Positions 1,662-60,923 are shown, counted from the stretch's first letter. The stretch is DNA of 64,000 bases from a virus (IMGVR_UViG_3300028634_000502:37231-101230), one strand, 5' to 3'. Notes: a model not told the origin generated them from the sequence alone. Made by a program: numbers and translations.

Positions 1662-2537
1662 ATGACTATGAAGAATAATCCGTATCTTTGCGGTGGCACC
1701 TTTTTTGTTCTTTTATTACAAGCAAAAAGGTTAAGACGCAAAGCACGAGATAAATTTCAAGGCGGCACAGATGGCCTTAATGATACAGATGTCATGAAGG
1801 GCCTTATTTATGTAGTCACAGGACAAGCTGTAGACCCATACAACGATTCATTTAAGAAGAACACCTCAGAATATAAGTCCTGTAAATACAATGGCGGTAC
1901 ATACATTCCATTCAATGAAGTTTCCACAATTAATAGCTTTGATAATGCTGTAAAAAACAAATACTCCGACACCCTGGATAGAATGTCGGAGTTCGCAAAC
2001 GACTATTTGATTGTTGAGAATTCAGAAAAAAGAGAATGGCTTATAAAGGCTTTGCTCGATGTCATTGAGCAAGATGTGGAAATCAAAGATGGCGATTTAT
2101 TTTATATTTCCAGCAATGGTGATGCCGTTTCAAGGTCTGCACTATCCGAGATTTCAAACATTGAATTTGAACCGTTCCTTGTAGGAGTACTACACTATAT
2201 CTTATTGAACCGTAAAAACAATGCACTTGGTCGCAGCACATTTGAGTCCTGGCACACCAGGCAATCACCTCATTCAGAATGGGATTTTGTCAGTGATATT
2301 GGCTGCGGGATTACACGCCCGATAACAGTATTCCTAATGGCTGTTAAAAAAGAGGATTATGCTGATTTTGAAGAAACAAATGCAGAAGAAGCACCAGAAC
2401 CGGAAGTAATAATAGAAGATGCTTCAGCTGGATCATCAACACAGAACGTAACGCAGATAGTGAATAACCCCACAATTGTAAATCAGTACGGAGAAAAGAA
2501 TATTCACATAGATCGGGTAGACACTTTAAATCTTTAA
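1662..2537 (+). CDS. Hypothetical protein with acidic linker and C-terminal Q/N-rich motif shared with the next gene
   Basis: 291 aa; RBS AAGGAGGG; ends NNPTIVNQYGEKNIHIDRVDTLNL. Confidence 0.85.
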   Translation: MTMKNNPYLCGGTFFVLLLQAKRLRRKARDKFQGGTDGLNDTDVMKGLIYVVTGQAVDPYNDSFKKNTSEYKSCKYNGGTYIPFNEVSTINSFDNAVKNKYSDTLDRMSEFANDYLIVENSEKREWLIKALLDVIEQDVEIKDGDLFYISSNGDAVSRSALSEISNIEFEPFLVGVLHYILLNRKNNALGRSTFESWHTRQSPHSEWDFVSDIGCGITRPITVFLMAVKKEDYADFEETNAEEAPEPEVIIEDASAGSSTQNVTQIVNNPTIVNQYGEKNIHIDRVDTLNL

Positions 2538-2552
2538 AAGGAGGTGCAATAA

Positions 2553-3194
2553 TTGAAAAATGAACTACAACAGGCACCTTCAAGCATTGTGCCTGCTAAT
2601 CCTACTACTGTTAATCAATATGGTGAGAAGAACGTCCACATAGAACACGCTGATAATATCCATCAGACAGTTAACTATAATTTAACATTCATAGATCGAA
2701 GTCCTAATGGAAGAAGAGAAAATGTCACCCAAAAGATAAATACAGACTACTACAACCTATTCGTTATAAGCGGCGAAACTTTTATGCATGATCATTTTCT
2801 TGTTCCAAAAGACCGTGCCTTAGTCAAGGGAACCATATCCGATGACTTATTTGAAAGATTGGCTGCTCTTACACCGGAAGCTATAGAGGAAATAAAGACA
2901 TTTCCTGCACTATTTGCAAGTGAAAATACGGATTATTGGGGAAAGACAGACCCTGAACAGCAAACCATATATGGACTTGTAAGAGAAATAAGAACCCAAG
3001 ATAACGGAATCATGATTTATTACAAAGATTTAAGTTTCATACCACAACAAAAAATTAATGAGATTTCTTTCGAACTCGGAATGGGTCAATCAAGGGCCAT
3101 AACTTCTTTAAATACAACCCGATGGACAATAAAGAAAATTAATCTCATTGAAGCATTAACCGATGCCGGAATCAGCGTTCTGGCACCAACTTAA
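2553..3194 (+). CDS. Hypothetical protein with N-terminal copy of the shared motif and a globular domain (YNLFV...FPALFASE...TRWTIKKINL)
   Basis: 213 aa; TTG start after AAGGAGGT; N-terminal NPTTVNQYGEKNVHIEHAD. Confidence 0.85.
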   Translation: MKNELQQAPSSIVPANPTTVNQYGEKNVHIEHADNIHQTVNYNLTFIDRSPNGRRENVTQKINTDYYNLFVISGETFMHDHFLVPKDRALVKGTISDDLFERLAALTPEAIEEIKTFPALFASENTDYWGKTDPEQQTIYGLVREIRTQDNGIMIYYKDLSFIPQQKINEISFELGMGQSRAITSLNTTRWTIKKINLIEALTDAGISVLAPT

Positions 3195-3216
3195 TTAAAG
3201 AAAAGGAGGCGGTACA

Positions 3217-5502
3217 ATGCAACCTAAAGTACCTTCTGAAATCACACAGATTTCTCTTAATGATGCCACCTATAAAGACTGTGGTGTTTCCATTCAACCT
3301 ACTCTTGTGAATTTTTTCTTTGGAAATAATGGCACGGGGAAATCTACTATAGCAAAAGCTATAAAAGCCGATACCGGCACAACCTGGAGAACAGGAAAGT
3401 TATCTACAGATTACAACATCCACGTATACAACCAGGACTTCATTAACGCCAATTTGCAGAATTATCACAATATGCCTGGGGTTTTTACTGTAAATGAAGT
3501 TAATATTGAAATTCAAAAACAGATTGAAGATAAAACCACAGAAAAAGAAACGGCGTCTACAGCTTTAGGTATTGCAACTGAGGAAAAAAAGAAAAAAGAA
3601 GGAGCCAATACTGCCTTGTTTTCTATCTTCCAAGATGAATGTTGGGAGAAAACAAAAGACCTCCGTGAGACATTTGACGGAACCCAAACAGGCAAGAAAA
3701 GAAAACAGCAGTTTGCAGAGGCTATCCTTGAGATAAAAACTCCAAAAGAACATGACCGAGCAGCTTTGAAAAGATTATATGATGCTGCTTATGCCTCCGA
3801 TTCCAAAAAATATGATGAGTTTAAAACAATAGCTGATACTTCTGTTCTTGATAAGCTTGGTGGAATCGATATTCTTGGCAAATCTATTGTAAGTAGTGCA
3901 ACTACTCCATTTGCTGAATTCATCAAGGCATTAAATGCAACTGCCTGGGTTCGTCAAGGTCATGAACAATACCGCGAAACTCCCGATAGTAAATGCCCAT
4001 ACTGTCAGCAGAAACTTCCTGAGAAGTTTGAGGATGATATAAAAGCCTGTTTTGATGCTCAGTACCAGAATGATATTATTGCACTTAAGGATTTCTATGA
4101 CACATATAAGCAAAAGGCAAATGAAATATTTGCTCCGCTACAGTCAGTTCCGCAAGACCTTTATCCTGAAATCGAAATTATGCCGTACAATGATAAACTT
4201 GCGGCTTTAAAAGGTATCATCTCCTCAAATCTTCAGCAAATCTCGGCTAAAATTGCTGATCCTTCCATTATTATTAGCATTGATGATACCGAACCTACAC
4301 TTAAAGAACTTAATGACATAATAAATGGATTCAATAAATTAATCAGTGAAAATAACGCTGTCATTGCCGCCAAACCAAAGAAACAGGCTGAATGTAAGAT
4401 AAGTGTATGGGAGTTACTAGCTTTTACTGTTAAAGACGAAGTTAATCGCTATAACACAAGCAAAACAGCATTGGAAAAAGAAATAACTACTTTTTCAACA
4501 CAGATTACTACTAACAAAAGTACTGTTCAGCGTATTACTGGTGAGATTTCAGATCTCAATAGACAAATAGTAAGTACTAAAGCAACCATTGACAGTGTGA
4601 ATACTCTTTTGCGTGATTCCGGGTTTCAAGGGTTTAGTATAAGAGAAAAATTTGACACACCTAATGTATATGAGGTTATTCGACCCAATGGAAGTATTGC
4701 TGAAAATTTGAGCGAGGGAGAACGTAATTTTATAGCCTTCCTATATTTCTATCACCTTGTTCGAGGTAGCGAAACTGCCGACGGGGGTCTTAGAGATAAA
4801 ATTGTAGTCATTGACGACCCTGTTTCCAGTATGGATAGCAGCTCCCTGTTTATTGTGAGTGCTCTTGTTCGTGAAATGATAGATATTTGCCATAACAATG
4901 CTGAAGAAAGAGTGCCTATTGTACAAGGTAACTTTATAAAGCAAATTTTCATTCTGACTCACAATGCCTATTTTCATAGGGAGATTACATACAATCAAGT
5001 AAAGCACTATCAATATGTAAACTTTTATCTCATCTGTAAAGTAGACAATAAATCATCTATTAGACTGTGCGAAAGGCAGAACCCGGACATCCCAACAGAA
5101 AAGATAAATGTTAATCCCGTTCAAAATTCTTATGCTGCATTGTGGGACGAGTATAAGGAGGTAACATCAGCCATACCATTGATGAATGTTATCCGCCGCA
5201 TCCTGGAATATTACTTTTTGCAGTTATGCGGATATGATGGTGCAATACTCCGCAAACGCATCTTAATGGATCACAAAGATAACTTCATAACTCACAAGGA
5301 AGATGGCAGCGAAGATACTACTCAATATCAAATGGCATCTGCAATGCTTTCTTATATTAGTGCAAATTCTATTGGTATTAATGATGGAATGAACTATGTA
5401 GATGACTGCATCGATGTAGTGCAGAGCCGAGAAACATTTGAGATGATATTTACATTTATGAATCAAGAACAGCATTACAAAATGATGATGGGCATCAAAT
5501 AG
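3217..5502 (+). CDS. RloC-like (AAA_13) Rad50/SMC-type ABC ATPase with zinc hook and degenerate HEPN-like C-terminus
   Basis: Walker A GNNGTGKST, coiled coils, CPYC hook, LSEGE signature, Walker B VVIDDP, LTHN H-loop, NVIRRILEYYF. Confidence 0.85.
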   Translation: MQPKVPSEITQISLNDATYKDCGVSIQPTLVNFFFGNNGTGKSTIAKAIKADTGTTWRTGKLSTDYNIHVYNQDFINANLQNYHNMPGVFTVNEVNIEIQKQIEDKTTEKETASTALGIATEEKKKKEGANTALFSIFQDECWEKTKDLRETFDGTQTGKKRKQQFAEAILEIKTPKEHDRAALKRLYDAAYASDSKKYDEFKTIADTSVLDKLGGIDILGKSIVSSATTPFAEFIKALNATAWVRQGHEQYRETPDSKCPYCQQKLPEKFEDDIKACFDAQYQNDIIALKDFYDTYKQKANEIFAPLQSVPQDLYPEIEIMPYNDKLAALKGIISSNLQQISAKIADPSIIISIDDTEPTLKELNDIINGFNKLISENNAVIAAKPKKQAECKISVWELLAFTVKDEVNRYNTSKTALEKEITTFSTQITTNKSTVQRITGEISDLNRQIVSTKATIDSVNTLLRDSGFQGFSIREKFDTPNVYEVIRPNGSIAENLSEGERNFIAFLYFYHLVRGSETADGGLRDKIVVIDDPVSSMDSSSLFIVSALVREMIDICHNNAEERVPIVQGNFIKQIFILTHNAYFHREITYNQVKHYQYVNFYLICKVDNKSSIRLCERQNPDIPTEKINVNPVQNSYAALWDEYKEVTSAIPLMNVIRRILEYYFLQLCGYDGAILRKRILMDHKDNFITHKEDGSEDTTQYQMASAMLSYISANSIGINDGMNYVDDCIDVVQSRETFEMIFTFMNQEQHYKMMMGIK

Positions 5503-5528: not shown

Positions 5529-5732
5529 ATGCGTATCAGCTATAATAAGCTATGGAAGATGCTAATCGACAAAAACATGAATAAGCAGGATTTAAAAGAA
5601 TTAAGTGGCGTAAGTGCCGCCTCCATTGCCAAGTTAGGGAAAGGCGAAAATATCACTACCGATGTCCTTCTTAAAATTTGTGAGGCCATGGATTGTCGCC
5701 TGGAAGATATTTTAGAAACTATTGACGATTAA
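5529..5732 (+). CDS. Xre/Cro-C1 HTH regulator (HTH_26-like)
   Basis: MRISYNKLWKMLID...SIAKLGKGENI; close paralogue of 57246-57467. Confidence 0.9.
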   Translation: MRISYNKLWKMLIDKNMNKQDLKELSGVSAASIAKLGKGENITTDVLLKICEAMDCRLEDILETIDD

Positions 5733-5752: not shown

Positions 5753-6715
5753 ATGGCAATTAAAACTTTTTTTGACTTCTGCTCCGGAATTGGGGGTGGC
5801 AGAATCGGTCTTGAGCAAAACGGGCTAGAATGTGTAGGCCACTCCGACACCAGCAGGTTAGCAGATACAACATATCGATTAATGAACGATAACGAAGATA
5901 AAAACTATGGCAACCTTAAAAAATTATCAAAAGAGAAACTACCAGATTTTGATGTTCTTATTGCTGGGTTTCCATGTCAATCTTTTTCGGTTATAGGCAG
6001 AAAAGATGGTTTTTCAGATAATCGTGGTCAAATAATCTTTCATCTGTCTAGGATTATAAATGAAACAAAACCGAAATGTTTCATTCTTGAAAATGTAAAA
6101 GGGCTTGTAACTCATGACAAGAAAAAAACCATCAAGGTTATTATGGACGAATTAACCGGATGCGGCTATCTTGTAGATTTTAAAGTTCTAACGAGTCTCG
6201 ACTATGGCGTCCCCCAAATGAGGCAAAGGGTATATTTCGTTGGTTTTAGAAATGATTTACCGATAGATATTACTGAATTTGAGTGGCCAGAAACTGTTCC
6301 TATGCCAGATTTAAAAAATTACTTAATTGATGAAAACTTAGCTTCTGAAGAACGATTAGAAATTCTTCAATACTACCTCAATAATCCTACAAATCAAGGA
6401 AAGTACACAGTATCCGACATAAGTCAAATGGAAGGAAAAATCATCGATACTCGTATGAATGACCTTCGAATTTATGATGGGAAATGCCCGACTCTGCGTG
6501 CTCAACGTGATGGGATTTTATATGTTAAAAATAAAAAAATATATCAATTAACAGGCTATGAAGCTCTTTTACTGCAGGGATTTCCAAAAGAACATGCTGA
6601 AAGAGTTAAAGACGTTGTTTCCGACCGTCACCTTCTTATGCAAGCAGGAAATGCGATGACAGTGGATGTCATTAGGGCGTTAGGATTCAGTATAAAGAAA
6701 TTTTTAGATTGTTAA
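5753..6715 (+). CDS. DNA cytosine-5 methyltransferase (specificity unknown)
   Basis: FCSGIGG, GFPCQ, ENVKG, QxRxR and GNA motifs. Confidence 0.93.
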   Translation: MAIKTFFDFCSGIGGGRIGLEQNGLECVGHSDTSRLADTTYRLMNDNEDKNYGNLKKLSKEKLPDFDVLIAGFPCQSFSVIGRKDGFSDNRGQIIFHLSRIINETKPKCFILENVKGLVTHDKKKTIKVIMDELTGCGYLVDFKVLTSLDYGVPQMRQRVYFVGFRNDLPIDITEFEWPETVPMPDLKNYLIDENLASEERLEILQYYLNNPTNQGKYTVSDISQMEGKIIDTRMNDLRIYDGKCPTLRAQRDGILYVKNKKIYQLTGYEALLLQGFPKEHAERVKDVVSDRHLLMQAGNAMTVDVIRALGFSIKKFLDC

Positions 6716-6737
6716 TAAAGGGGGGTGTTTATGACAT

Positions 6738-7292
6738 ATGAGCTATTCATATAACGATTATGTGGGAGCTTTCTCAGATTCCTTCAAAAGAGTAAAGGTC
6801 GAACAAGATTATGCTAACCGCATTTCTGAGTTTGTTAAAGAACTAATAGCAGCAAAAGCAGTAGAGGAACATCATCAAAGGGATAATTTAAATGAAATCA
6901 AAAGATTTACAACCGGGTATTTAGGCGAAGCTGCTCTTGAAAAACTATTAGGAATCCAAATTATTGACTGGACAATAGGATATTCAGGATTGTATCACCA
7001 TCCAGATATTCCTGGCTATTCTGTAGGAATAAAAACAGTTGAACAAGGTAAGTTTCCTATTATTTTTAAAGAAAACTATTATCCACAAATTATCTGCATT
7101 CGAAGTTCGAAAATACCAAATCTTATCTTTGTTTGTGGACTTGCCACTAAAGACGTTCTTAATACATATCAGGATACGAACTTGATTTTAGATAGTAATC
7201 TGAGAGCACGAGGAACCAAAACAGGATTTTATGGTTTTCAACATTTGAAACCATTTACATCACTAAATGATATTGAAAAATATAAAAAATAA
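6738..7292 (+). CDS. Hypothetical protein, possible PD-(D/E)XK-like nuclease
   Basis: GEAA...PDI...GIKT pattern; lies between an MTase and an REase. Confidence 0.45.
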   Translation: MSYSYNDYVGAFSDSFKRVKVEQDYANRISEFVKELIAAKAVEEHHQRDNLNEIKRFTTGYLGEAALEKLLGIQIIDWTIGYSGLYHHPDIPGYSVGIKTVEQGKFPIIFKENYYPQIICIRSSKIPNLIFVCGLATKDVLNTYQDTNLILDSNLRARGTKTGFYGFQHLKPFTSLNDIEKYKK

Positions 7293-7310
7293 AATAGGAG
7301 GAACATATTT

Positions 7311-8096
7311 ATGGCTGTATGGGAAGATTTTGAAATAGAATGCACTGAATATTTAAATAAAACTTTTGGGAAGTACGCAAATTTCGTTCATCAAGGAGGT
7401 TCGGACTCAACAGTCCCTGACATTCTGGTAAAAACTAATAAAGGCACATCGTTTTATATCGATGCCAAACATTGTCCTGCCCAATGTGGCCAGTTTGTTT
7501 TATTACCAGACATTTCAACGAATACCTTCGAATATAGCAGATTAAACTCTACCCGTATCAACGTGTATGCACAAAAGATTATGAACCATATGAACATCTA
7601 TTTCGAGGATTTCAAAGAAGCAGGTACAGGCGGAAAAGAAATTGTTTTGGATGACGGCGATGACACATTTGCAAAATGGATTATCAGTACATACAAAAGT
7701 AATGGGGTAAAATATTTTATTACCAATGATTATGTAATTTTGCCGGTAGATGATTTCCAAAGGCATTTTAACGTGTCCGCAAAATACCGTATAAAAAGAA
7801 GTGGATCAAGTAACACTGGCAGAGCACGCATTGTAGAAATAATTAACTACATTCGTTCTCATGGCTATGCAATATCGGATACTCGTACCGTTGGCGATAA
7901 GCTGTTTGTAAGATCACAAGTAGCTCTTCATAATAAACGATTTATTTATCAGGGTTATGAATATATGTTTTCATTAAGAGATAATGAATTTGAAATACGA
8001 AAACTTTCCAATACCTTTAATGCGAATGTTATTTTTTCAATTAATAAAAAACGAGCATCAGGGCTTACGCGGGAACAATTTGCTAAAGAACTTTAA
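7311..8096 (+). CDS. HhaI-like type II restriction endonuclease (probably GCGC)
   Basis: WEDFE..C..YLNKT, SDST.PDIL, FYIDAK, QCGQFVL, YRIKRSGS and LSNTFNANVIFSI match R.HhaI as recalled; convergent with an M.HhaI-like gene. Confidence 0.8.
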   Translation: MAVWEDFEIECTEYLNKTFGKYANFVHQGGSDSTVPDILVKTNKGTSFYIDAKHCPAQCGQFVLLPDISTNTFEYSRLNSTRINVYAQKIMNHMNIYFEDFKEAGTGGKEIVLDDGDDTFAKWIISTYKSNGVKYFITNDYVILPVDDFQRHFNVSAKYRIKRSGSSNTGRARIVEIINYIRSHGYAISDTRTVGDKLFVRSQVALHNKRFIYQGYEYMFSLRDNEFEIRKLSNTFNANVIFSINKKRASGLTREQFAKEL

Positions 8097-8101
8097 AAAT
8101 A

Positions 8102-8139
8102 AAAAATAGGGCAAGCCTAATATGACTTGCCCTATTTTT
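8102..8139. terminator. Bidirectional intrinsic terminator
   Basis: AAAAATAGGGCAAG-N10-CTTGCCCTATTTTT between convergent genes. Confidence 0.85.
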
Positions 8140-8428
8140 AATGTTCTTCAAGAAATTGAATGTAGGTACGTAATGCATAACGATACACACTCAACGTATA
8201 CTGCCCAATGGGCAAATTCACAGATCCATACTGTTTCATGGTATCATTAATACCCTTGTTTTCAAATGCTTTAAAAAGTGTCTCACATTTATCATTGCTA
8301 TACTCTGCATCAAGGTCGCAATTTCCAATTTCACGCTGAATTGCTTTTAATCGTGAAACAATATCACTTTGAACTTTTTTGCTCTTATCAGATTTTGCAA
8401 GCCAATTTCTAAAGTCAACTTCGTTCAT
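8138..8428 (-). CDS. Small hypothetical helical protein coupled to the MTase
   Basis: 96-aa ORF whose start overlaps the MTase stop. Confidence 0.7.
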   Translation of the reverse strand: MNEVDFRNWLAKSDKSKKVQSDIVSRLKAIQREIGNCDLDAEYSNDKCETLFKAFENKGINDTMKQYGSVNLPIGQYTLSVYRYALRTYIQFLEEH

Positions 8429-9411
8429 TACTTTTCCTCCATTGCTTTTCCAATTTGCTGTGCAATAAGTTGCAAAACATCAATTACAACGGAGTTTCCA
8501 AACTGCTTGTATGCTTGGTTCATGCTATTGCATATCTTATAGCTATCAGGATATCCCATTAATCTTGCACACTCTCTCGGATGCAATTTTCTTGCTTTAC
8601 CATTAATTAAATACCCTCCTGTTTTAGCAAATATACCACCACCGTTTGCTGATAGAGTTATTGCAATACCTTTTGTACTGTAAATCCTTTCTCCCTGTCC
8701 GCCTTTGTTTACTATGCCAAGCCTGATAGATGTTTTGTTGCTATATTTGTCGTCTTTATTCCCATTATAATATGTATCGGGTCTATCCACATATAAATCT
8801 TTGACTAATTCTTCATCTTCCAACAAGAAATTTTCAACATGCTTAGTAAGCTTGAATGGTTTTGGAAATTCAAACCCATTAACATTCAAGTCATTTCTAA
8901 AACAAATCATATAAATTCTTTCTCTTTTCTGCGGCACTCCGTAATCAACCGCATTTAAAACTTTTTGAGTAAAGGTATATCCCAGTTCTTCCATTGTCGC
9001 TTTAACGACTTCAAGTGTACGGCCATCATCATGTGTTGCGAAATTTTTCACATTTTCCATAAATACTATTTTTGGTTTTTTTGCTTTAACTATTCTTGAA
9101 ACATCAAAAAACAGAGTTCCCCGGCTATCTTCAAACCCACGTTGCTTGCCGCTTATCGAGAATGCTTGGCATGGGAATCCAGCACATAAAATATCATGAG
9201 ATGGAATGGTATTTTCATCTACTTTGGTAATGTCACCCTCTGGCATGTCCCCAAAATTATCCTCATAAACTTTTTGCACGTGCTCATCCCATTCATTAGA
9301 ATAAACACACTTTGCTCCAAGTGACTCTAATGCAATTCTAAATCCTCCTAAGCCTGCAAAAAGATCTATAAACGTATAACCCTTTAAATATTGTTTTTCT
9401 ACTTCAATCAT
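8428..9411 (-). CDS. M.HhaI-like DNA cytosine-5 methyltransferase (GCGC)
   Basis: 327 aa; FIDLFAGLGG, GFPCQAFSISGKQ; target-recognition region KGGQGERIYSTKGIAITLSANGGGIFAKTGGY nearly as in M.HhaI. Confidence 0.92.
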   Translation of the reverse strand: MIEVEKQYLKGYTFIDLFAGLGGFRIALESLGAKCVYSNEWDEHVQKVYEDNFGDMPEGDITKVDENTIPSHDILCAGFPCQAFSISGKQRGFEDSRGTLFFDVSRIVKAKKPKIVFMENVKNFATHDDGRTLEVVKATMEELGYTFTQKVLNAVDYGVPQKRERIYMICFRNDLNVNGFEFPKPFKLTKHVENFLLEDEELVKDLYVDRPDTYYNGNKDDKYSNKTSIRLGIVNKGGQGERIYSTKGIAITLSANGGGIFAKTGGYLINGKARKLHPRECARLMGYPDSYKICNSMNQAYKQFGNSVVIDVLQLIAQQIGKAMEEK

Positions 9412-51576: not shown

Positions 51577-52713
51577 TTAATCCTCCATTATTTCGTTAAA
51601 TTCGTTTTTTACGTTTGATACGTTCATTGCCGGGCGCTTATCCGAAGTTGGTGCCAGAGTCGGCTTGCCCGGTGGTTTATATATGAGATCCCCGAGGATT
51701 TCTTCGAATTTTGTCTTGCCCATCAGCTTCTGCATTTCAGTAAGAGTAATGAGACTCTGACGGAAGATATCCTTGTAGCCGTTAATCCTTGCTGCTTCTG
51801 CAACAGCAAACTCATCCTTGTATTTGCGGATAGAACGGCCTTCTACTACCTTAAACCCGCTCCACTCCTTGCCATGGTTGATGGCTGCGTCCGTAGCATA
51901 AGCCACGATTTCATTTGCCCACCTGGTAAGGTCCTGCAGCTTGCTGAGAACCTCTTCAATTTCTGGGTCCGTAAGCAAAGGCGGCATCTTAAATTCCCAC
52001 TGGGCGAGTTTCAACTTTTCTTCCGCTCTTGCCCGGCATTTTACCGCCGCGCGGCAGAAGGTACACCACTCTCCGGCGAGATACTCACCCTCGCCGTCAT
52101 ATGCTTTCTGCGCTTTTGGTTTCAGTTCATATTCCGCCCAGCTCCTTAATTCATCCACTGGAATCGTCCAGGTGCTGACATTCTCCCTGCGCGGCTGGAA
52201 TATAGTCAGGGAAATCTCATTAATGTCATACAGGCTGTCGTAGATTTCCAGAGCCCCAAGCGCATACAATTTCATCTGCGGATTTTCTACCACATCCACC
52301 AATATCCCCATGCCGTACTTGAAGTCGATAATATGCAGACTTTTGTCCGCAATGATGATGCAGTCGCCGGTTCCAAACCCCTGGGGCACATAACAGGAAA
52401 AATCAAGTTGTTGTTCGATTAGTATCAGAGGATCCCTGCAGCTTTGCTTTGCCGTTTCAAGCTGTTCCATTACAAACTCCACATAGGCATCGCTGTGTTC
52501 TTCCATCTCATCGCTGTTATAATCCGAAACAGGACGCTTGCTCCTCATGTGAAGCACCTTGCGAAGTTTATGCTCGCATAAAGCATGTGCGGCGGTACCT
52601 TCGGCGGCTGCATTGGATTCGCTATTTGCAAACTCCAGTTCTAATCTCGCAGATGGATGGCAATTGAGCCATCTATGCGACCCGGATGCGGAAAGTACTG
52701 CGTGGTTACCCAT
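51577..52713 (-). CDS. DUF2800 PD-(D/E)XK (Cas4-like) nuclease
   Basis: LSASGSHRW, GTAAH, FGTGD, DFKYG, C.FC...C. Confidence 0.88.
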   Translation of the reverse strand: MGNHAVLSASGSHRWLNCHPSARLELEFANSESNAAAEGTAAHALCEHKLRKVLHMRSKRPVSDYNSDEMEEHSDAYVEFVMEQLETAKQSCRDPLILIEQQLDFSCYVPQGFGTGDCIIIADKSLHIIDFKYGMGILVDVVENPQMKLYALGALEIYDSLYDINEISLTIFQPRRENVSTWTIPVDELRSWAEYELKPKAQKAYDGEGEYLAGEWCTFCRAAVKCRARAEEKLKLAQWEFKMPPLLTDPEIEEVLSKLQDLTRWANEIVAYATDAAINHGKEWSGFKVVEGRSIRKYKDEFAVAEAARINGYKDIFRQSLITLTEMQKLMGKTKFEEILGDLIYKPPGKPTLAPTSDKRPAMNVSNVKNEFNEIMED

Positions 52714-53047
52714 TGCCAAGTACCTCCGCATCTTTCAAGATATTTGCGTAATGCTCCGGCGCAATTTCGCTCAGTTTTGAGCCGCCATATTTTTGAATGA
52801 TTTCTCTCACTTCAGCAGTAAGACCGGCTTGGCTCTTCACGGCAAGTGCGGCTCTGACTTCCTCCAGCGTGGTTTCCTTCTTCTTTGATTTTTCCGTTTT
52901 TACCGGCTCAGGCTTCTTTGCAGGTACGGTCTGCTCTGTTGTTTCAGCAGGTTCATTTTCCTCCAATGCATTTGCAACCATTTGAAGGCTGTCTGCCAAA
53001 GAGCGCATATCCGAAACCACATCAAGGAGCAACTTGGTTTTGCTCAT
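52706..53047 (-). CDS. Hypothetical phage protein
   Basis: Start MSKTKLL; LEEVRA...KLSEI motif. Confidence 0.75.
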   Translation of the reverse strand: MSKTKLLLDVVSDMRSLADSLQMVANALEENEPAETTEQTVPAKKPEPVKTEKSKKKETTLEEVRAALAVKSQAGLTAEVREIIQKYGGSKLSEIAPEHYANILKDAEVLGNG

Positions 53048-53249
53048 GGCTTGTCCCTCCTTCCTTGGTCTCGCAGATAGCAAGTTCCTGAACCGTGTCT
53101 CCTGGAACAAGGATAGTCAATTTCTGCATGTCACCCAGGAAGAAACGAAGGAAACGCTCCCTTATGTTGACATTGCGGCAAGTCACTATCCCGCCGGTCT
53201 GCGGATGCTTAGAAACACTGATTTTCAGATTGTGTTTCATATTGTTCAC
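53022..53249 (-). CDS. Hypothetical phage protein
   Basis: Coupled ORF in the early operon. Confidence 0.7.
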   Translation of the reverse strand: MNNMKHNLKISVSKHPQTGGIVTCRNVNIRERFLRFFLGDMQKLTILVPGDTVQELAICETKEGGTSHEQNQVAP

Positions 53250-53275
53250 CTCTTTCCGAGAGCGTTTATTTGCTG

Positions 53276-53315
53276 CCCTCTACCCATTAGCCTTGAGAAG
53301 AGGTGAAAGTTGAGG
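53276..53315 (-). promoter_or_regulatory. Putative phage-sigma promoter motif at the 3' end of the sigma-like gene
   Basis: Same motif and spacing as 48945-48984. Confidence 0.55.
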
Positions 53316-53859
53316 ATTCCGGAAAAACCTTTTTGAAATTTTTTATTGCGGTTTCCATACGGTGCGATATGGCGCTGACAGAAACACCCTCGCGCTCTGC
53401 ATACTCAGTCACTGACATGCCGTCCAATACGATGGCTATCAGCATTTTCGCCTGTTTTGCTTTTAGAGTCTTACGAATGCTATTACAGATGCATTCATAT
53501 TCCAGATGTTTTTCACAGTTCTCTTCATCTGAGTTATCAGGGAATAATTCAATTGCATTTTCCTTTTCACTTTTATCATCATCAGCATCATTGATTACTT
53601 TTGCATAACCCCTTTTCCCATTAAGTTTCTTGGGTGGAGTAATAGCAGCTGAATGCCTGTCAAACTTATGCCAGTTGTTGTACTCCGGCTTGTTGAAACG
53701 CTCGTCCATAATTTCCTGCACAGTACGCCGGGTTAAGGTTTCATTGTCATCAGCGGCGGATAGCCTGTCCTCATAATCCGCATCGATCATTACTGAGCAT
53801 TCCTCGTCCGGTACCTCCAGGTAGGTTGGCTTGTTGTCATACAGAATTCGAATCTTCAT
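53287..53859 (-). CDS. Phage sigma-70 region 4-like regulator
   Basis: Start MKIRILYD; C-terminal HTH VTEYAEREGVSVSAISHR; paralogue of 663-1211. Confidence 0.8.
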   Translation of the reverse strand: MKIRILYDNKPTYLEVPDEECSVMIDADYEDRLSAADDNETLTRRTVQEIMDERFNKPEYNNWHKFDRHSAAITPPKKLNGKRGYAKVINDADDDKSEKENAIELFPDNSDEENCEKHLEYECICNSIRKTLKAKQAKMLIAIVLDGMSVTEYAEREGVSVSAISHRMETAIKNFKKVFPESSTFTSSQG

Positions 53860-54062
53860 TAAGTATTCCTTTCCGTCCTGGCATTGGGCGGCGGAATACA
53901 AAAAGAGCCTGAGGTGAAGATGTCCACAGACTCCGCTTGTCCTCAAAATTGGCGCGCGAAATCACGGTGGGTGCATCTTCATTCCAAACACAGTCTTGGT
54001 TACTGTGCTCTGAACTCTCTATGCATCCCGCCGTCCTAATGCGCATCTCGGACATTGAGATT
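53849..54062 (-). ncRNA. Conserved structured 5' leader (copy 2)
   Basis: Near-identical to 1201-1412, with differences concentrated in loops and linkers. Confidence 0.65.
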
Positions 54063-54262
54063 ATTTTCGAATGGTTCCGTTTGCGGTTGAAATATCTGTT
54101 TTCACGAACAATAAATTGTTTTATGCAGATATTTGTGATATACTGGGAAATAAATTACTTTCCAGTCAATTCTTTGGAACACTTTTCAATTTTTATTATA
54201 AAGGTTCCGCTTGGTATCCCTCGGTACGCTCGGATATGTTTGGATATGAAGGAGGCTTAAAT

Positions 54263-55390
54263 TTGAAGTTCACTCAATTTGCAAAGTTAATGTTTGCGGT
54301 TGCGGGTGCCGGAAACAGTACTAGTGCTTATACGCGCACACTCTTCCTTTCAATCGTTATGTACGAGGATGAGGAACTGAATCCGATTTATGATCACAAA
54401 GATTCGACCTTTAAGGCTTACTATAATGGGACAAATGACATCACAAAGTTAGCGCGAAGAATCAGCACATACATCGAACCGGAAGAATTTATTTCTTATA
54501 TTGAAAGCCTACCTGATGCCGCAGTCGAAGCTTTGTGTACATCCTTTGCTCCTTACATTCCAAGTATTAATTTGTACTCCGCCGCAGCTGATTTGGCTGA
54601 TTTATTTAAATCAATTATCATTGAGGCCTCGTCAACAGATAAAAAAATCGCCCCAGCAAATGCTGTAGGCGAAATTGCAATTCAAAGTGATAAGCTGGAT
54701 AGGATCTTCGGTACTAGGCTACTCGTAGAGACAAAGGGGCTATGTCCTAATGACAACTGTTGCAAGCATCTTTATTTGGATACTAACGGTCAGACAACAA
54801 TGAACTATACCATTATACAAATTGATCCTACCGCTAAAGAAAACCAGATAAATAATGCAATAGCACTATGCCCAGAATGTGGCAAGAAATATATCTTGAC
54901 GCGCAATGCCGACAGCATTGCCCGTATGAAAGAGATCAAAGAACAACTGCTAAGAGAATCAGACGCAATTGATACCTTGTCAAATACTAATGTAGAAGAA
55001 GGTGTTGAGCGTGTTCTTCGCAAGATAGCGGATCCTTTGGTTCAGCTTATACCTCTCAACTATGATCCTGTCGAGCTGAAACAAAAGATACTCCCTGAAA
55101 ACCGACCGCTATATATAAAAACAAAGGGCTATGTAATTGAATATTATTCTGCTGTTCATGGCACCTTTCAACAATTAAGTAAGGAAGGTAAGTTGCGGTT
55201 CACTCCGTTTTGTATGCAGATAAAACTTAATTATTTAAATTTGCGAGATCGTGGGTTATCTCAGCTTGAAATCTTCGATGCAATGGCATCTTGGCTTGCA
55301 TCTAACACCAATGACAGAAAAGACTTGTGTGAAATAGTGATTTCCTATTTTGTGCAGAAATGCGAGGTGTTCGATGCAATTACCGAATAA
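54263..55390 (+). CDS. LmuA/ABC-3C effector-like protein: N-terminal helical domain, degenerate HNH, CTD
   Basis: TTG start after AAGGAGG; CPNDNC...N...CPEC; C-terminal ISYFVQKCEVF typical of ABC-3C CTDs. Confidence 0.75.
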   Translation: MKFTQFAKLMFAVAGAGNSTSAYTRTLFLSIVMYEDEELNPIYDHKDSTFKAYYNGTNDITKLARRISTYIEPEEFISYIESLPDAAVEALCTSFAPYIPSINLYSAAADLADLFKSIIIEASSTDKKIAPANAVGEIAIQSDKLDRIFGTRLLVETKGLCPNDNCCKHLYLDTNGQTTMNYTIIQIDPTAKENQINNAIALCPECGKKYILTRNADSIARMKEIKEQLLRESDAIDTLSNTNVEEGVERVLRKIADPLVQLIPLNYDPVELKQKILPENRPLYIKTKGYVIEYYSAVHGTFQQLSKEGKLRFTPFCMQIKLNYLNLRDRGLSQLEIFDAMASWLASNTNDRKDLCEIVISYFVQKCEVFDAITE

Positions 55391-55601
55391 ATTATTTACA
55401 TACGGCGAAAGTATTCTATCAAAATTTTCACCCGTCTTGAAGGCATTAGAAAACGAATGCTTACCCGCAGGTGTTCTCTACACCAAGCTAATACAACATT
55501 TTGAAGATATTAATGAGTTTATAGAAGTACTTGATGCCTTATATGCTCTCAATAAAATCGACTATGATGATGAAAAGGAGGTCTTGTTATATGTTGTATG
55601 A
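55374..55601 (+). CDS. ABC-3C middle component / LmuC-like
   Basis: MQLPNKLFTYGES...LDALYALNKI; overlaps both neighbours. Confidence 0.75.
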   Translation: MQLPNKLFTYGESILSKFSPVLKALENECLPAGVLYTKLIQHFEDINEFIEVLDALYALNKIDYDDEKEVLLYVV

Positions 55602-57228
55602 AATCAGATGTGACAGATTTATGTCACAAGGAAAACTAAGACCACCGATTCGTTTTCACGAAGGCCTGAACACAATACTTGGTGGCAAAGCCGCCGATAA
55701 TTCTGTTGGAAAATCAACATTCATGCTAATTATAGATTACGCTTTCGGAGGTGAAACATATAAGGACTCTGACGCAGCGCATCATCTTGGAAATCATGTT
55801 ATACAATTTGCTTTCAATTTTGTAGACGGTATGCACTACTACTCCAGGGATATCGTAAATAGTAATGAAGTCAATATCTGTGATGAAAAATATAACATTA
55901 TCAAGACCATTCGGTTAGATGCTTTTCGCGGCTTACTTTTTAAGTCCTACGGATTATCATTACCATGTATTTCATTCCGCGATATTGTTGGTCGCTATGC
56001 ACGTATTCATGGCAAGGGAAATGTTTCTAGCACTCGCCCGCTTGAGTCATTTCCGGGTGAAAGCGCAGAGAAAGGCATTATTGCACTTGAGAAGCTATTT
56101 AATGTCTATTGGAAAATTGAGCAGTATCGCGAGGCATACAACAAAAAGGCTGAACTACAGAAGTTTTACCGGCAAGGCAAAAAGGTCGAGTTTATTCCTT
56201 TTTCTACTCGTACCCAGAAACAATTTAAAAGCAACGAGAAAGAAATAGAGCAATTAAAAGAAGAACTCAATCAGCTTGTTGGAAGGACAGACCAAGACTT
56301 ATCACAAAGCGACCTCACTCACGCAGATGAGGCATCTGGAATCAAAGGCAAGCTTACTTCACTCCGCAGACAAAGAAGCCGTTATAAATCACAGTTGGAA
56401 TCAGTAAAAGTAAGCATAAACGGAGGATTTACTCAAACGGCTATTGATCTCGCCGAACTTGCAGAATTTTTTCCTGACATAGATATGCATAAGCTTAGTG
56501 AAATTGAGCAATTTCACGGTAAGCTACAAAATATATTAAGTGACGAGTTGGTTGATGAAGCAGAACGTCTTGGGATCTTAATAGAGTTAATAACTGAAGA
56601 AATAATAGTCCTTGAAGAACAACAACGTCAGCTTGGTATTCCCACAACGGTGCCCAAATCCTTTCTAGATAGCTACGCTGCTTTACGAAGAAGAATAGAT
56701 GACTTGACAAGCCAGAATTCTGCATATATAGATTCAAACACTTTAGTTGCTGATGTTAAAGTTGCTCGCCAAGACTTGATCACTGCACAAGAGGTTGAAC
56801 TTCGCAATATCGAAGCGGCAGTCAATGCTCAAATGGTTCGCTATAATGATGCTGTGTACCACGGCACTCGAAAAGCACCAGTTATTAACCTCGTGGATGG
56901 AACTAAATACGAATTTGTAACACCAGATGACAGCGGAACCGGAACATCTTATAAGAGCCTTATTGTGTTCGATTTAAGCATTCTGAAGCTCACAGAATTG
57001 CCTGCACTTGTCCACGACTCTTTAATTTTCAAAAATATAGCAGATGCACCCATCTCCGAAATAATTAAGCTATATGCTGACAGCAAAAAACAAGTTTTCA
57101 TTTCTTTCGACAAGGAAGAAGCTTATGGCGAAGAAACAAGCAATCTTCTGAACGACACCGCTGTTCTTCATTTAAACGAAGGTGGTAACGAACTGTTTGG
57201 CTATTGTTGGGGAAAAATAGACATATAG
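55591..57228 (+). CDS. DUF2326 SMC-like ABC ATPase / LmuB-like
   Basis: GLNTILG...NSVGKST, coiled coil, SGTG, LVHDS, KQVFISFD. Confidence 0.85.
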   Translation: MLYEIRCDRFMSQGKLRPPIRFHEGLNTILGGKAADNSVGKSTFMLIIDYAFGGETYKDSDAAHHLGNHVIQFAFNFVDGMHYYSRDIVNSNEVNICDEKYNIIKTIRLDAFRGLLFKSYGLSLPCISFRDIVGRYARIHGKGNVSSTRPLESFPGESAEKGIIALEKLFNVYWKIEQYREAYNKKAELQKFYRQGKKVEFIPFSTRTQKQFKSNEKEIEQLKEELNQLVGRTDQDLSQSDLTHADEASGIKGKLTSLRRQRSRYKSQLESVKVSINGGFTQTAIDLAELAEFFPDIDMHKLSEIEQFHGKLQNILSDELVDEAERLGILIELITEEIIVLEEQQRQLGIPTTVPKSFLDSYAALRRRIDDLTSQNSAYIDSNTLVADVKVARQDLITAQEVELRNIEAAVNAQMVRYNDAVYHGTRKAPVINLVDGTKYEFVTPDDSGTGTSYKSLIVFDLSILKLTELPALVHDSLIFKNIADAPISEIIKLYADSKKQVFISFDKEEAYGEETSNLLNDTAVLHLNEGGNELFGYCWGKIDI

Positions 57229-57245
57229 GTTATTAGGAGGCTCTA

Positions 57246-57467
57246 ATGAGATTTAGTTATAACAAGCTATGGAAATTACTGATTGACAGAAATATGAATA
57301 AGCAGGACTTGAAACGAATTAGCGGAATTAGTTCAGCTTCTGTCGCAAAGCTTGGCAAGGGTGCTAATATTACTACAGATATACTATTAAATATCTGCGA
57401 GGCCTTGGATTGCGACATCTCTGATATCATGGAAGTTGAAAAGAACAAACCGCAAAATAAGGAGTGA
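57246..57467 (+). CDS. Xre/Cro-C1 HTH regulator (HTH_26-like)
   Basis: Paralogue of 5529-5732. Confidence 0.9.
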   Translation: MRFSYNKLWKLLIDRNMNKQDLKRISGISSASVAKLGKGANITTDILLNICEALDCDISDIMEVEKNKPQNKE

Positions 57468-57471
57468 AAAG

Positions 57472-58632
57472 ATGAAGCTTTTATATTCAAACATGCTTCC
57501 ACTCAGCACAACAGAGGAGCAGGAAACCATAATTGACTGCGTCAACCGACAGATTGCCGAATCAGATAGAATAGAAATTGCCGTTGGATATATATCACGT
57601 GCTTCTCTAGACGAAATCGATAGGCTGGTGGAGCAGTTCAATATCCAAAGCATAACTATCACAATAGGAATGTATTACATCGAAGGAATGCCTGAAGGTT
57701 CTTATCGTGTTGCTATTGAATTAAATCGAAAGTGGCAAGAACTTGGTATTGGAGAAATACGTCTTATCCGTGCATTTAAATATCACGGAAAGCTTTATTG
57801 TTTCTACAAAGATGGTCAGGTGTTTTCTGCTATTATTGGCTCTGCAAATATGGGGGTTTTGAAATTAGATGCAAACAACCGTAGACAATATGAAATATCA
57901 TGCCTGGTAACTGAAGAGAATGAAAAAAATGAAATAGCAACATTTATTGAGCAGTTGAAAACATCAAATTGTTCAGCAAATATTGCGCTTGTACAAGGCA
58001 TGACTCTTATCAGAGAAGTCAATGTTTCTTTAAATGGTATTGACACTGTTACCCAGCTGCCACCAACCGGAGTTCAGCTTTATATGCAGCACAAAACAAC
58101 AGTATCTTTTGTACTCCCAATTAAGGTACCCTCGTTTGATGAGCGTTTTATGGACGATAATAGACATTATACAAAATCAAATATAAATGTCTGTTATGCG
58201 GCACCCAGAAGCCGCAGAAAATCGCGTGATTGGTATGAAACGCAAATGACAGTTGCAAAAGAGATTGCTCGTCAGGTAGGATACCCAGAAAAAAATGTAA
58301 CCTTTTTTGTGGTAACGGATGACGGATATTGGTTTAAGGCACACACTACAAGTGACGGAAATAAGCAGTTTAGTGCAGTTGGAGACGAGTTGATTCTTGG
58401 GCGATGGATTAAAGGCCGCCTTGCAGCTGCCGGCCTCGTTAAACCAGTAAACGATACACAAATTGATGCCGATAGACGCGGAATGATTACTAAAGAAATG
58501 TTAGCTTCATACGGTTGTGACAGCTTGTTACTTACCAAAACAGATCAAAAGGCTTTGGATGAAGATAGTAATGAACTTGATGTTTGGATTCTTTCTTTTG
58601 AGGCAACCGCCGAAGAAAACGGAGGTCAATGA
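57472..58632 (+). CDS. NgoFVII/CglI-type PLD restriction endonuclease subunit
   Basis: YHGKLY...GSAN...YE PLD motif plus C-terminal DNA-binding domain. Confidence 0.88.
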   Translation: MKLLYSNMLPLSTTEEQETIIDCVNRQIAESDRIEIAVGYISRASLDEIDRLVEQFNIQSITITIGMYYIEGMPEGSYRVAIELNRKWQELGIGEIRLIRAFKYHGKLYCFYKDGQVFSAIIGSANMGVLKLDANNRRQYEISCLVTEENEKNEIATFIEQLKTSNCSANIALVQGMTLIREVNVSLNGIDTVTQLPPTGVQLYMQHKTTVSFVLPIKVPSFDERFMDDNRHYTKSNINVCYAAPRSRRKSRDWYETQMTVAKEIARQVGYPEKNVTFFVVTDDGYWFKAHTTSDGNKQFSAVGDELILGRWIKGRLAAAGLVKPVNDTQIDADRRGMITKEMLASYGCDSLLLTKTDQKALDEDSNELDVWILSFEATAEENGGQ

Positions 58633-60476
58633 TGCAATACCTAAAGACATACCTTGAAAAAGTTACTGACCGAGGAAACACTAATCTCGCCAATTCCATC
58701 CAAAGAACTGCAGAGGAAGTTGGGAATTTACATATTAAAGGTTTCTCCTTTACGAGCCATGAAATTGGCCTTCTCTTTGGAAATGTGCAATCGGGAAAAA
58801 CTGGCCAAATGTTTGGTATTCTATGCAAAGCGGCTGACCTTGGCTTCCCAGCCTTTGTTTTGCTAACTACTGACAATGTAGTTCTTCATCAACAAACCCT
58901 GGATAGAGTTAAAGCCGATTTAGATGGATTTTGCATTTGTGGCGAAAATGATTCAGGGTTGTTTATAGAAAACAGCCTTATAAAACCAGCCATCGTTGTA
59001 TTGAAGAAAAATTTCAGAACGCTTCGTCTTTGGGCAAATGTCTTTAACACTACAGGTTTTATGAGGGGGAATCCTCTCTTTATAATTGATGATGAGGCTG
59101 ATACCGCTTCTCTAAATACTCTTATTAACAGAAGCAGACAATCCTCCATTAACAGATATCTTGACTCGATTAAGGACGGTGCATCAAGCAGTCTGTACTT
59201 GCAAGTAACTGGAACCCCGCAGGCAATATTTCTTCAAACGATTGCTTCTGGGTGGCATCCGTTGTTCACATATTACTTTAAGCCCGGAAACGGCTATCTT
59301 GGCGGGGATTTCTTCTTCCCCGAAACGGGTACACCCTCCTGCATTAGTATTCTTAACACTATTCAACGTCCTGCTCGTAATGTTGTAATACGTCATTTGG
59401 CAGTATCTGCTCAGATACTTGCTTCTGGCGGGGAGGTATCAAATTGCCTAATTCATCCAAGTATAAGACAGGCAGTCCATCAGCATTCTGCAGGCGACGT
59501 TGAAAAAGAACTAAACTGGTGCGTTGAAAACATTACGGGTGATTTTGTAACCGAACTTCAGATTCAATATGACTCTTATGAACCATCAAAGAATGGCAAG
59601 CTTCCTTTTAATACAATTGTTGAAAAAGCGCAGAATCTTTTGACTAATGGCGGTATTAAAATTCTTATTATGAACGGAAAAACGGATGTAGACAGTGATG
59701 CGTACTCCGTAGGGTGTAATTTCGTAGTTGGCGGTAATACACTTGGCCGAGGAGTCACATTCCCACAGTTACAAACAATTTACTACACAAGGACTTCAAA
59801 GAAACCCCAAGCAGATACAATGTGGCAGCACAGTCGGATGTTTGGATATGATCGAGATCCTGGAATGATGAAGGTGTTCATTGATGAGCATCTCTACAAG
59901 TTGTTTGCGGATATCAATGCTACCAACAACTCGATAATTTCCCAGATTGAGCAAGGCATCGAGAATGTAAAAATTTATTATCCAGAAGGACTCAATCCCA
60001 CTAGAGCAAATGTGCTTGATAATGATCATGTGGAAGCTATTTCTGGAGGTACCAATTATTATCCTTACAATCCGAAGAATGATACCATAGAGCAGATTTC
60101 AGAACTTTTACAAGCTTTCTCTGAGGATGAACCGTATTATCAAGTTAATCTTCGTTTTGTAAAAGAACTGCTTAGCCATATCATACCAAGTCCAGATTTT
60201 AAGTTGTTATCTTTCAAATCGATTATCGACACTATGCTTTCCGAAGCACCCGCCGGGCAAGGAATACTTATTGTCCGAAGACGCAGAGATATCACTCAGG
60301 GAACAGGTGCATTACTGTCACCTAACGATTGGCAACTTGGCGGGAGATTTATGGACAAGGTAGTTCTAACCATGTACCAAGTTACTGGTGCAAAAGGCTG
60401 GGGAGGACAACCGCTTTGGGTGCCGAACATCAAACTGCCCCATGGCACTTTATATTATGATGTTACTGAGGACTAG
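58629..60476 (+). CDS. DEAD-Z1 helicase/ATPase subunit of a CglI/NgoAVII-type R-M system
   Basis: GNVQSGKT, IDDEAD, TGTP, GGNTLGRG, Q..RMFGY. Confidence 0.9.
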   Translation: MMQYLKTYLEKVTDRGNTNLANSIQRTAEEVGNLHIKGFSFTSHEIGLLFGNVQSGKTGQMFGILCKAADLGFPAFVLLTTDNVVLHQQTLDRVKADLDGFCICGENDSGLFIENSLIKPAIVVLKKNFRTLRLWANVFNTTGFMRGNPLFIIDDEADTASLNTLINRSRQSSINRYLDSIKDGASSSLYLQVTGTPQAIFLQTIASGWHPLFTYYFKPGNGYLGGDFFFPETGTPSCISILNTIQRPARNVVIRHLAVSAQILASGGEVSNCLIHPSIRQAVHQHSAGDVEKELNWCVENITGDFVTELQIQYDSYEPSKNGKLPFNTIVEKAQNLLTNGGIKILIMNGKTDVDSDAYSVGCNFVVGGNTLGRGVTFPQLQTIYYTRTSKKPQADTMWQHSRMFGYDRDPGMMKVFIDEHLYKLFADINATNNSIISQIEQGIENVKIYYPEGLNPTRANVLDNDHVEAISGGTNYYPYNPKNDTIEQISELLQAFSEDEPYYQVNLRFVKELLSHIIPSPDFKLLSFKSIIDTMLSEAPAGQGILIVRRRRDITQGTGALLSPNDWQLGGRFMDKVVLTMYQVTGAKGWGGQPLWVPNIKLPHGTLYYDVTED

Positions 60477-60494
60477 GCAAACACTTATAAGGAG

Positions 60495-60923
60495 GTGATT
60501 GTCATGGCGGATAATCACTCCAAGGAAATACGAAGTAAAAATATGTCTCACATTCGCAGTATAAATTCTAAGCCGGAAGAAAAGGTGCGAAAATATCTAT
60601 TCAAACGCGGGCTTCGCTATAGGAAAAATGTTCGCAATTTGCCCGGATGTCCTGACATCGTCCTTCCAAAATATAAAACCGTTATTTTTATAAATGGTTG
60701 TTTTTGGCATCATCATGACTGCGGATGCTTCGTTTGGCCGTCTTCAAACGAAGAATACTGGCATAATAAAATCGAACGCAATGTAGAACGTGACACTGAA
60801 AATACACTTTTACTTAGACAACAAGGTTGGCGTGTTCTTGTCATATGGGAATGTCAGCTTAGGAAGGTTGTTGCAGAAAATAGTTTAAATTCTCTGTACG
60901 AAAGTATAATTACCAACGAATAA
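60495..60923 (+). CDS. vsr: Very short patch repair endonuclease
   Basis: RSKNMSHI, LPG.PDIV, FINGCFWH.H, WEC. Confidence 0.93.
   Translation: MIVMADNHSKEIRSKNMSHIRSINSKPEEKVRKYLFKRGLRYRKNVRNLPGCPDIVLPKYKTVIFINGCFWHHHDCGCFVWPSSNEEYWHNKIERNVERDTENTLLLRQQGWRVLVIWECQLRKVVAENSLNSLYESIITNE

Follow-up and report, generated by a model that had tools for sequence, protein, structure and literature searches.

The window analysed here is a stretch of 64,000 nt (IMGVR_UViG_3300028634_000502:37231-101230) of an IMG/VR provirus record of 101 kb with an estimated completeness of 95 %. Close to its left end, the open reading frame (ORF) calls reveal three co-directional genes: (i) UP (1662-2537, + strand; 291 aa), preceded by the ribosome-binding site GGAGGG at 1650-1655, (ii) MC (2553-3194, + strand; 213 aa), with a TTG start codon and GGAGG at 2540-2544, and (iii) a gene for an RloC-like ABC ATPase of the Pfam family AAA_13 with a coiled-coil insert (3217-5502, + strand; 761 aa). 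The present analysis concerns a short peptide motif rich in asparagine, glutamine and glycine, hereafter termed tag, which ends the UP protein and recurs near the N-terminus of the MC protein, and its possible role in coupling UP as effector-side protein to MC as receptor-side protein.

In UP, a 19-residue motif stretch (residues 269-287, nt 2466-2522) is followed by just four residues and the stop codon; the counterpart in MC comprises residues 16-34 (nt 2598-2654). The effector-side C-terminal tag covers UP residues 269-291 (2466-2534, + strand) and the receptor-side N-terminal tag MC residues 16-42 (2598-2678, + strand); the shared peptide has about 22 residues, and the tag of UP about 22-30. 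Of their first 15 residues, the two copies share 13, nine of which are encoded by different synonymous codons. When MC was compared with all six frames of the 101-kb record, the UP tail was the only match besides MC itself (E 1.1e-5), so the likeness of the two motifs is not a matter of chance. Both tags are disordered in the AlphaFold2 (AF2) monomer models of their proteins. The remainder of UP consists of an all-alpha domain, here named LCGG (residues 1-228; 1662-2345, + strand; AF2 model), and an acidic disordered linker (residues 229-268; 2346-2465, + strand; pLDDT below 50), the acidic character of which is kept across homologues while its sequence is not (alignment A2). Re-reading of the sequence confirmed all coordinates and counts given for the motif in the preliminary description of this DNA, as well as the acidic low-complexity linker of the 291-aa protein. 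The motif flanks, which had been described as similar, are each conserved within their own family (alignment A3); an in-register alignment of one flank with the other, however, is not obtained.

Homologous loci were assembled from genomes (70 loci, mostly of Clostridia) and from 69 viral contigs. Among the genome loci (36 non-redundant), the UP tail and the MC N-terminus of the same locus scored 56.7 on average as compared to 32.2 for non-cognate combinations (permutation p < 5e-5), and the viral loci (27 non-redundant) as an independent set yielded 56.0 versus 31.5 (p < 5e-5). For the pooled 45 non-redundant loci, the matrices of tail-tail and N-terminus-N-terminus similarity were correlated (Mantel r 0.78, p <= 0.0005), and about 11-17 motif classes could be distinguished. 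These classes are barely alignable with each other, as illustrated by the cores NQYGEKN, IPNYGTxNIN, AEKIVN and ISGGNN, and the two proteins of any one locus always bear the same class. Of 630 locus pairs compared, 366 had paralogous (within-locus) scores that were both higher than either of the orthologous (between-locus) ones. At the 362 positions with a residue shared between the tags, the same codon was used 157 times, as compared to 166 expected from codon usage. Since codon identity does not exceed chance, recent duplication or gene conversion is rejected as the origin of the motif, and the earlier proposal of selection on the peptide rather than on the DNA is borne out, as is the co-variation of the motif copies within loci in both independent sets. 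At the level of the peptide, the evolution of the two tags is concerted. A shared localisation or degradation signal was likewise rejected: it is the host machinery that determines such signals, and a split into matched classes would not be expected of them.

A profile of the motif class of the window (A3), compared with 1.84 billion proteins, retrieved 80 clusters. The motif is located at the very C-terminus (last residue or at most 3 residues away) in 59 of them and within the first ~25 residues in 19, the remaining two being a spurious repeat protein and a fragment. The window itself shows the paired layout, with one motif copy ending the effector-side protein and the other near the start of the neighbouring gene product, and 78 of the 80 clusters place the motif terminally. 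C-terminal tails are carried by two unrelated families of N-terminal domains among the loci and by two further singleton N-terminal domains among the profile matches. Tail carriers with deviating N-terminal parts include P0299 (400 aa), which contains an OmpR-type winged-helix Trans_reg_C domain (E 4.3e-8), and the singletons P0267 and P0270, which belong to no family. N-terminal tags occur on two kinds of proteins: the MC family and adaptors in which the tag is followed by the ABC-3C domain CTD6 (Pfam E 4.7e-28).

The adaptor type is found in a canonical ABC-3C operon with a split effector (L144:119-2489), which encodes successively an LCGG domain with tail, a tag-CTD6 protein, MC2 and the start of a P-loop ABC ATPase that is cut off by the end of this contig of just 2.5 kb. 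In the protein P0214, by comparison, the LCGG domain is covalently fused to CTD6. The split arrangement in L144 versus the fused one in P0214 indicates that the tag pair substitutes for a peptide bond, which provides strong comparative evidence for a physical association of the two tags. As read from these gene architectures, the matched tag pair replaces the covalent effector-CTD6 fusion in an ABC-3C/Lamassu operon. Interchangeability of split and fused forms would also suit a fixed, soluble 1:1 pseudo-homodimeric beta-zipper, which tethers the effector to MC and whose effector is activated by release or conformational change instead of templated polymerisation. In the solved Lamassu complexes, the resting effector LmuA is indeed anchored through its C-terminal domain (CTD) and LmuC and released on activation, in line with such a tether. 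The evidence that bears against it is taken up below together with the proposed mechanism.

Homologues of UP form 113 clusters, and no match to UP was obtained in Pfam, NCBIfam, PADLOC or PHROGs. The LCGG domain is modelled confidently as all-alpha (AF2, pLDDT mostly above 90), with C10, G11, G12, C74 and D138 among its invariant residues. Its fold was matched neither by Foldseek against the PDB nor in the wide VIA comparison (best Z 3.1), nor in the atlas by shape (TM at most 0.34) or by features (0.78); relatives in the PDB were also not retrieved by sequence, for UP as for MC and the ATPase. No CTD1-12 domain was detected in UP with Pfam, whereas relatives possess one (CTD6 in P0214 and in the L144 adaptor). 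LCGG further constitutes the N-terminal domain of two proteins with NACHT and SNaCT14 domains (P0316, P0320) and of one with NB-ARC and TPR domains (P0318), in addition to its fusion to ABC-3C CTD6. Amyloid signalling pairs of fungi and bacteria are defined by just this duality, in which a domain is found either on an NTPase or by itself with a motif at its end; the layout of such pairs, which had been recognised at this locus beforehand, is substantiated by the LCGG fusions to NACHT and NB-ARC NTPases. Judged from these domain contexts, UP is most likely an effector-type protein of the cell-killing kind. In the model, the first helix of LCGG is buried and hydrophobic and is followed by a basic stretch, and two cysteines are invariant; these features would allow a membrane-targeting or an enzymatic role, neither of which is preferred.

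The MC protein has homologues in 274 clusters, none of which is named. MC did not match any entry of Pfam, NCBIfam, PADLOC or PHROGs, and six of its relatives remained without a Pfam match even at E up to 10. By Pfam, MC and the six relatives do not belong to the middle-component families MC1-8; MC also contains neither a P-loop nor the NB-ARC/NACHT module of NOD-like receptors (NLRs). According to the AF2 model (pTM 0.70), residues 1-40 are disordered and precede a beta-rich domain. The top 17 VIA matches of this domain are all PUA-like (Z 4.8-7.2 over 105-123 aligned residues) and include EVE, ASCH and YTH domains, the N-domain of McrB, VcaM4I and the N-terminal region of DrmA. Foldseek returned weak YTH and Lon-N rows (E 0.009 or weaker), and no sequence profile matched MC. 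Based on the model and the fold comparison, residues 41-213 (2673-3191, + strand) probably form a PUA-like (EVE/ASCH/YTH-type) beta-barrel with a nucleic-acid-reader fold.

The ATPase is assigned to AAA_13 (Pfam E 2.3e-128) and not to DUF2326; it matches the PADLOC models PDC-S06 (E 1.9e-213) and LmuB (E 2.5e-16) and corresponds to phrog_2801. Its zinc-hook motif CPYC (residues 260-263; 3994-4005, + strand) is conserved: a CP[YF]C motif occupies the equivalent position, close to residue 260, in all 19 loci inspected. Conserved motifs were listed for the C-terminal domain, but could not be assigned to a catalytic signature of an anticodon nuclease. Downstream of MC, AAA_13 genes were counted in 55 of 70 genome loci and 47 of 63 viral loci. 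An intact UP/MC pair without AAA_13 gene is present in about a dozen of the 15 genome loci devoid of it and in six viral loci, which amounts to ~15 % of the loci where the sequence beyond the pair is long enough to judge. In these cases, an HTH (helix-turn-helix) gene, a SNF2 helicase, DUF4391 and a methylase are found downstream instead. Persistence of the pairs without AAA_13 identifies the matched pair as the conserved core and the ATPase as a frequent but dispensable partner; the ATPase is thus not the fixed member of a triad that it had been taken for.

One region of this type (L007:6674-12639, also in L018, L024 and L060) comprises the matched UP/MC pair, a small HTH gene, a 1077-aa SNF2-type helicase, DUF4391, an unnamed gene and an N6_N4 methylase. 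The set of helicase, DUF4391 and methylase after UP/MC may serve the pair as a substitute partner, or else may be a module in its own right for defence or modification. Furthermore, many loci (e.g., L014:6589-6819; also L146:5191-5385) contain a 65-76-aa gene of the HTH_17/VrlI-like type in the interval from MC to the ATPase; it is absent from the window, where an Xre-type gene (HTH_26) follows the ATPase instead.

These distributions bear on the possibility that the tags do not bind each other but the same site on a third protein, e.g., the two halves of an ATPase dimer, or compete for it as mimics. The ATPase, being a dimer-type SMC/Rad50-like protein that follows the pair in most loci, would be the natural candidate. 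Against this stand the matched pairs with intact genes but without AAA_13 gene in said ~15 % of loci, the occurrence of the pair with wholly different partners (CTD6 adaptor, MC2 and LmuB-like ATPase), and the lack of a third protein present in every context, as would be needed to drive 11-17 matched classes. Binding to a third protein is therefore very improbable. Since the matched pair is the only constant across receptor contexts, recognition of the tags by each other is indicated, and from these sequence comparisons a direct coupling of effector and receptor by the tags appears highly probable.

The cassette is closed by the small Xre-type HTH gene (5529-5732, + strand; HTH_26, Pfam E 9.6e-20), which lies downstream of the ATPase also in L071 and L072. 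On the other side, a divergent sigma-like gene (663-1376, - strand; weak match to Sigma70_r4_2, and phrog_1740, sigma factor) forms the conserved left border of a variable slot; counterparts are located upstream of the pair in L007 and at 53287-53946 of the window. Promoter and terminator scans of the locus gave no sites above those in shuffled sequence and hence do not define the operon limits. The UP/MC pair is always found beside the divergent sigma-like gene and a DUF2800/DNA polymerase replication module. The window harbours a sister element at 51577-60923 in which a DUF2800 nuclease (51577-52731, - strand) and the sigma-like gene (53287-53946, - strand) are followed, at the same slot position, by an ABC-3C/Lamassu cassette composed of a CTD11 effector (54071-55390) and a DUF2326/AAA_23 ATPase (55531-57228). 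No homology was found between UP and this CTD11 effector. The location of the UP/MC cassette is a variable defence slot of the provirus. The same four genes, with a matched motif class of their own, are present in the deposited record of the Streptococcus prophage Javan105 (L146, genes 0053-0056), which stems from a named host strain and where GenBank annotates the ATPase as 'RloC' and the other genes as 'hypothetical protein'.

Several accessory genes surround the two cassettes. Upstream of the sigma-like gene (3-598, - strand), a Bro-N-like antirepressor fragment (3-170) and a 143-aa protein (167-598) with weak matches to PHROGs of homing-endonuclease type represent typical prophage accessory genes. 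Directly 3' of the Xre gene, a restriction-modification (R-M) cassette (5753-9411; read from the ORF list only) consists of C5-cytosine methyltransferase-like genes at 5753-6715 (+ strand) and 8428-9411 (- strand) around two unassigned ORFs at 6738-7292 and 7311-8096. In the sister cassette, effector and ATPase are separated by a 140-nt gap and no middle-component gene is present; genes for an NgoFVII-type endonuclease, a Z1-domain protein and Vsr follow.

The genomic setting could also suit a non-immune regulatory or replication-control module of the prophage, i.e., a lysogeny or superinfection switch with a dimerisation tag, given that the cassette lies between the sigma-like gene plus replication module and the Xre gene, and that the tail carrier P0299 possesses a winged-helix Trans_reg_C domain. 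Such a function is hardly to be expected, however, in view of an effector domain common to NACHT proteins, NB-ARC proteins and ABC-3C effectors, of an ATPase matching defence-candidate models, of the Lamassu cassette in the same slot of the sister element and of the adjacent R-M systems.

Taken together, we favour a prophage-borne cassette of the defence type in which a homotypic peptide tag joins the effector to the sensor, through what may be an amyloid-like cross-beta structure; we assign this reading a probability of roughly 60 %. According to the proposed mechanism, the receptor molecules would cluster once the sensor side is triggered. The PUA-like domain might respond to a phage nucleic acid, the zinc-hook ATPase to DNA ends or damage, and the trigger could come through either of them or through both. 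The clustered N-terminal tags would then adopt a cross-beta fold and recruit and template the effector tails. This would bring the effector domains together and, in analogy to Bab/Agp and HET-S/NWD2, switch them on through proximity or refolding, with abortive infection as the outcome.

Whether the coupling involves amyloid-like templating or a fixed 1:1 tether affects only one part of this proposal, and templating can be given chances a little short of even. Sequence data do not separate it from the beta-zipper introduced above, since both predict identity-preserving co-variation. The 1:1 zipper is not readily reconciled with the strongly N/Q/G-rich, prion-like composition of the tags, with their disorder in both monomer models, with the sub-threshold likeness of one class to the sigma amyloid motif, or with the presence of the effector domain on NLR-type proteins, the known split versions of which use amyloid motifs. 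With these points set against the Lamassu-like anchoring and the exchange of tag pair for peptide bond, the zipper is regarded as rather unlikely. The likeness to sigma concerns one motif class with a GVQIG-type core, three tails of which matched the fungal sigma family Ses_B (PF17046) of Pfam at E 4.7e-4, 1.9e-3 and 0.053; the MC partners of the matching tails bear the corresponding motif variant. A complex prediction for MC with UP residues 240-291 gave an ipSAE of 0.00 in both runs; carried out without controls, it speaks neither for nor against binding.

Several observations weigh against the amyloid-like defence cassette favoured here. The Ses_B scores (20.4, 18.5 and 13.9 bits) are below the curated cut-off of 23.2 bits, and RHIM was matched at an E-value of 1.4. 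The receptor-side tag copies of six classes yielded no Pfam match at E up to 10, Ses_B included, and the motif class of the window matched none of Pfam RHIM, Ses_B and HET-s. Several charged residues lie within the motif, and identity-preserving co-variation would equally be expected of a symmetric interface. Fibril formation is a putative property of the tags. On the side of the proteins, the Z scores behind the PUA-like assignment of MC are middling, and a toxic activity of UP and an anti-phage activity of the family are likewise putative. In the literature covered, no paper was found that joins 'amyloid signaling' with 'Lamassu'; Krishnan et al. 2020 (PMC7544218), the source of ABC-3C, was not part of it, and a prior mention is possible there.

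Paired amyloid-type motifs (BASS1-11 and those of fungi), ABC-3C/Lamassu systems and the ATPase as candidate defence gene are already known. Provisionally regarded as new are the motif family with its many orthogonal classes, the effector fold, the prophages of unicellular Bacillota as carriers, the combination of such tags with an AAA_13 ATPase and a middle protein of PUA-like type, and the splitting of a Lamassu effector from its CTD. As a wider and more tentative proposal, with the odds on balance against it in its full extent, prophages of Bacillota may harbour a family of immune switches based on amyloid-type tags, dozens of them and mutually orthogonal. These would connect interchangeable effectors, among them a new all-alpha death-type domain that bacterial NLRs also possess, to a novel type of receptor, namely a PUA-like reader of nucleic acids acting with a zinc-hook ABC ATPase, and could also split Lamassu effectors from their CTD. 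If this holds true, amyloid signalling would reach beyond NLRs, to SMC-like machines of defence and to Firmicutes that are unicellular. Should the tags function as proposed above, matched-motif signalling would not be confined to NLR/TPR receptors but also serve SMC/Rad50-like defence, with Lamassu as one example. In that case, a toolkit of short, specific protein-coupling peptides would be at hand in the 11-17 naturally orthogonal tag pairs, and hypothetical prophage genes (about 270 MC and 110 UP clusters, none represented in Pfam, PHROGs or PADLOC) would gain roles as probable nucleic-acid reader and new-fold effector, respectively. Finally, the family offers a clean case for distinguishing cross-beta templating from a simple zipper as the meaning of concerted peptide evolution.

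Among known systems, RloC/PrrC (PADLOC PDC-S06) resembles the third gene of the cassette in its AAA_13 architecture, coiled-coil insert and CxxC zinc hook. Unlike RloC, which is described as a single-protein tRNase, the ATPase studied here is preceded by a conserved tag-linked gene pair. The gene order of effector, small middle protein and SMC/Rad50-like ABC ATPase is that of ABC-3C and type II Lamassu (LmuA-LmuC-LmuB; DdmABC), true Lamassu and the present cassette are interchangeable occupants of one prophage slot, and the tag pair occurs inside the CTD6/MC2 operon of L144. The preliminary description had gone too far in stating that no described system has this composition, since effector, middle protein and ABC ATPase correspond to the ABC-3C/Lamassu layout and the motif pair is present in L144. 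Differences from Lamassu concern the effector of the window, which lacks CTD1-12, the middle protein, which is outside MC1-8 and has a PUA-like appearance, and the ATPase, which is an AAA_13 protein with zinc hook and only distantly LmuB-like (PADLOC E 2.5e-16).

With BASS1-10 and the fungal HRAM, sigma and PP pairs, the system shares paired terminal motifs in adjacent genes, identity within the pair and many orthogonal families. As in the BASS and fungal pairs (Bell- or HeLo-domain protein with NLR), the effector domain is alternatively fused to an NTPase, and one class is sigma-like, albeit below threshold. In contrast to these pairs, the receptor does not possess an NB-ARC or NACHT module. 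BASS pairs are reported to occur chiefly in multicellular Actinobacteria and Cyanobacteria, with few or none in Firmicutes (Dyrka et al., bioRxiv 10.1101/2020.01.06.895854), whereas the family described here resides on prophages of Clostridia and streptococci.

A close parallel is provided by Bab/Agp (BASS11) of E. coli ECOR25, where abortive infection is driven by a matched amyloid motif although the receptor is not an NLR (Ibarlosa et al., bioRxiv 10.1101/2024.11.07.622273); accordingly, the non-NLR partner has a forerunner in this system, and an NLR receptor is not a universal trait of such pairs. Bab/Agp differs in its motif sequence and in its Bell-type mini-domain, in place of which the present effector contains a ~230-residue domain without fold match; moreover, the hosts are Bacillota in the present case, and amyloid behaviour is putative. 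Common to both are adjacent genes in a prophage hotspot, a motif of ~20 residues at the C-terminus of the effector and at the N-terminus of a non-NLR receptor, and an effector-type domain that occurs on antiphage NLRs as well.

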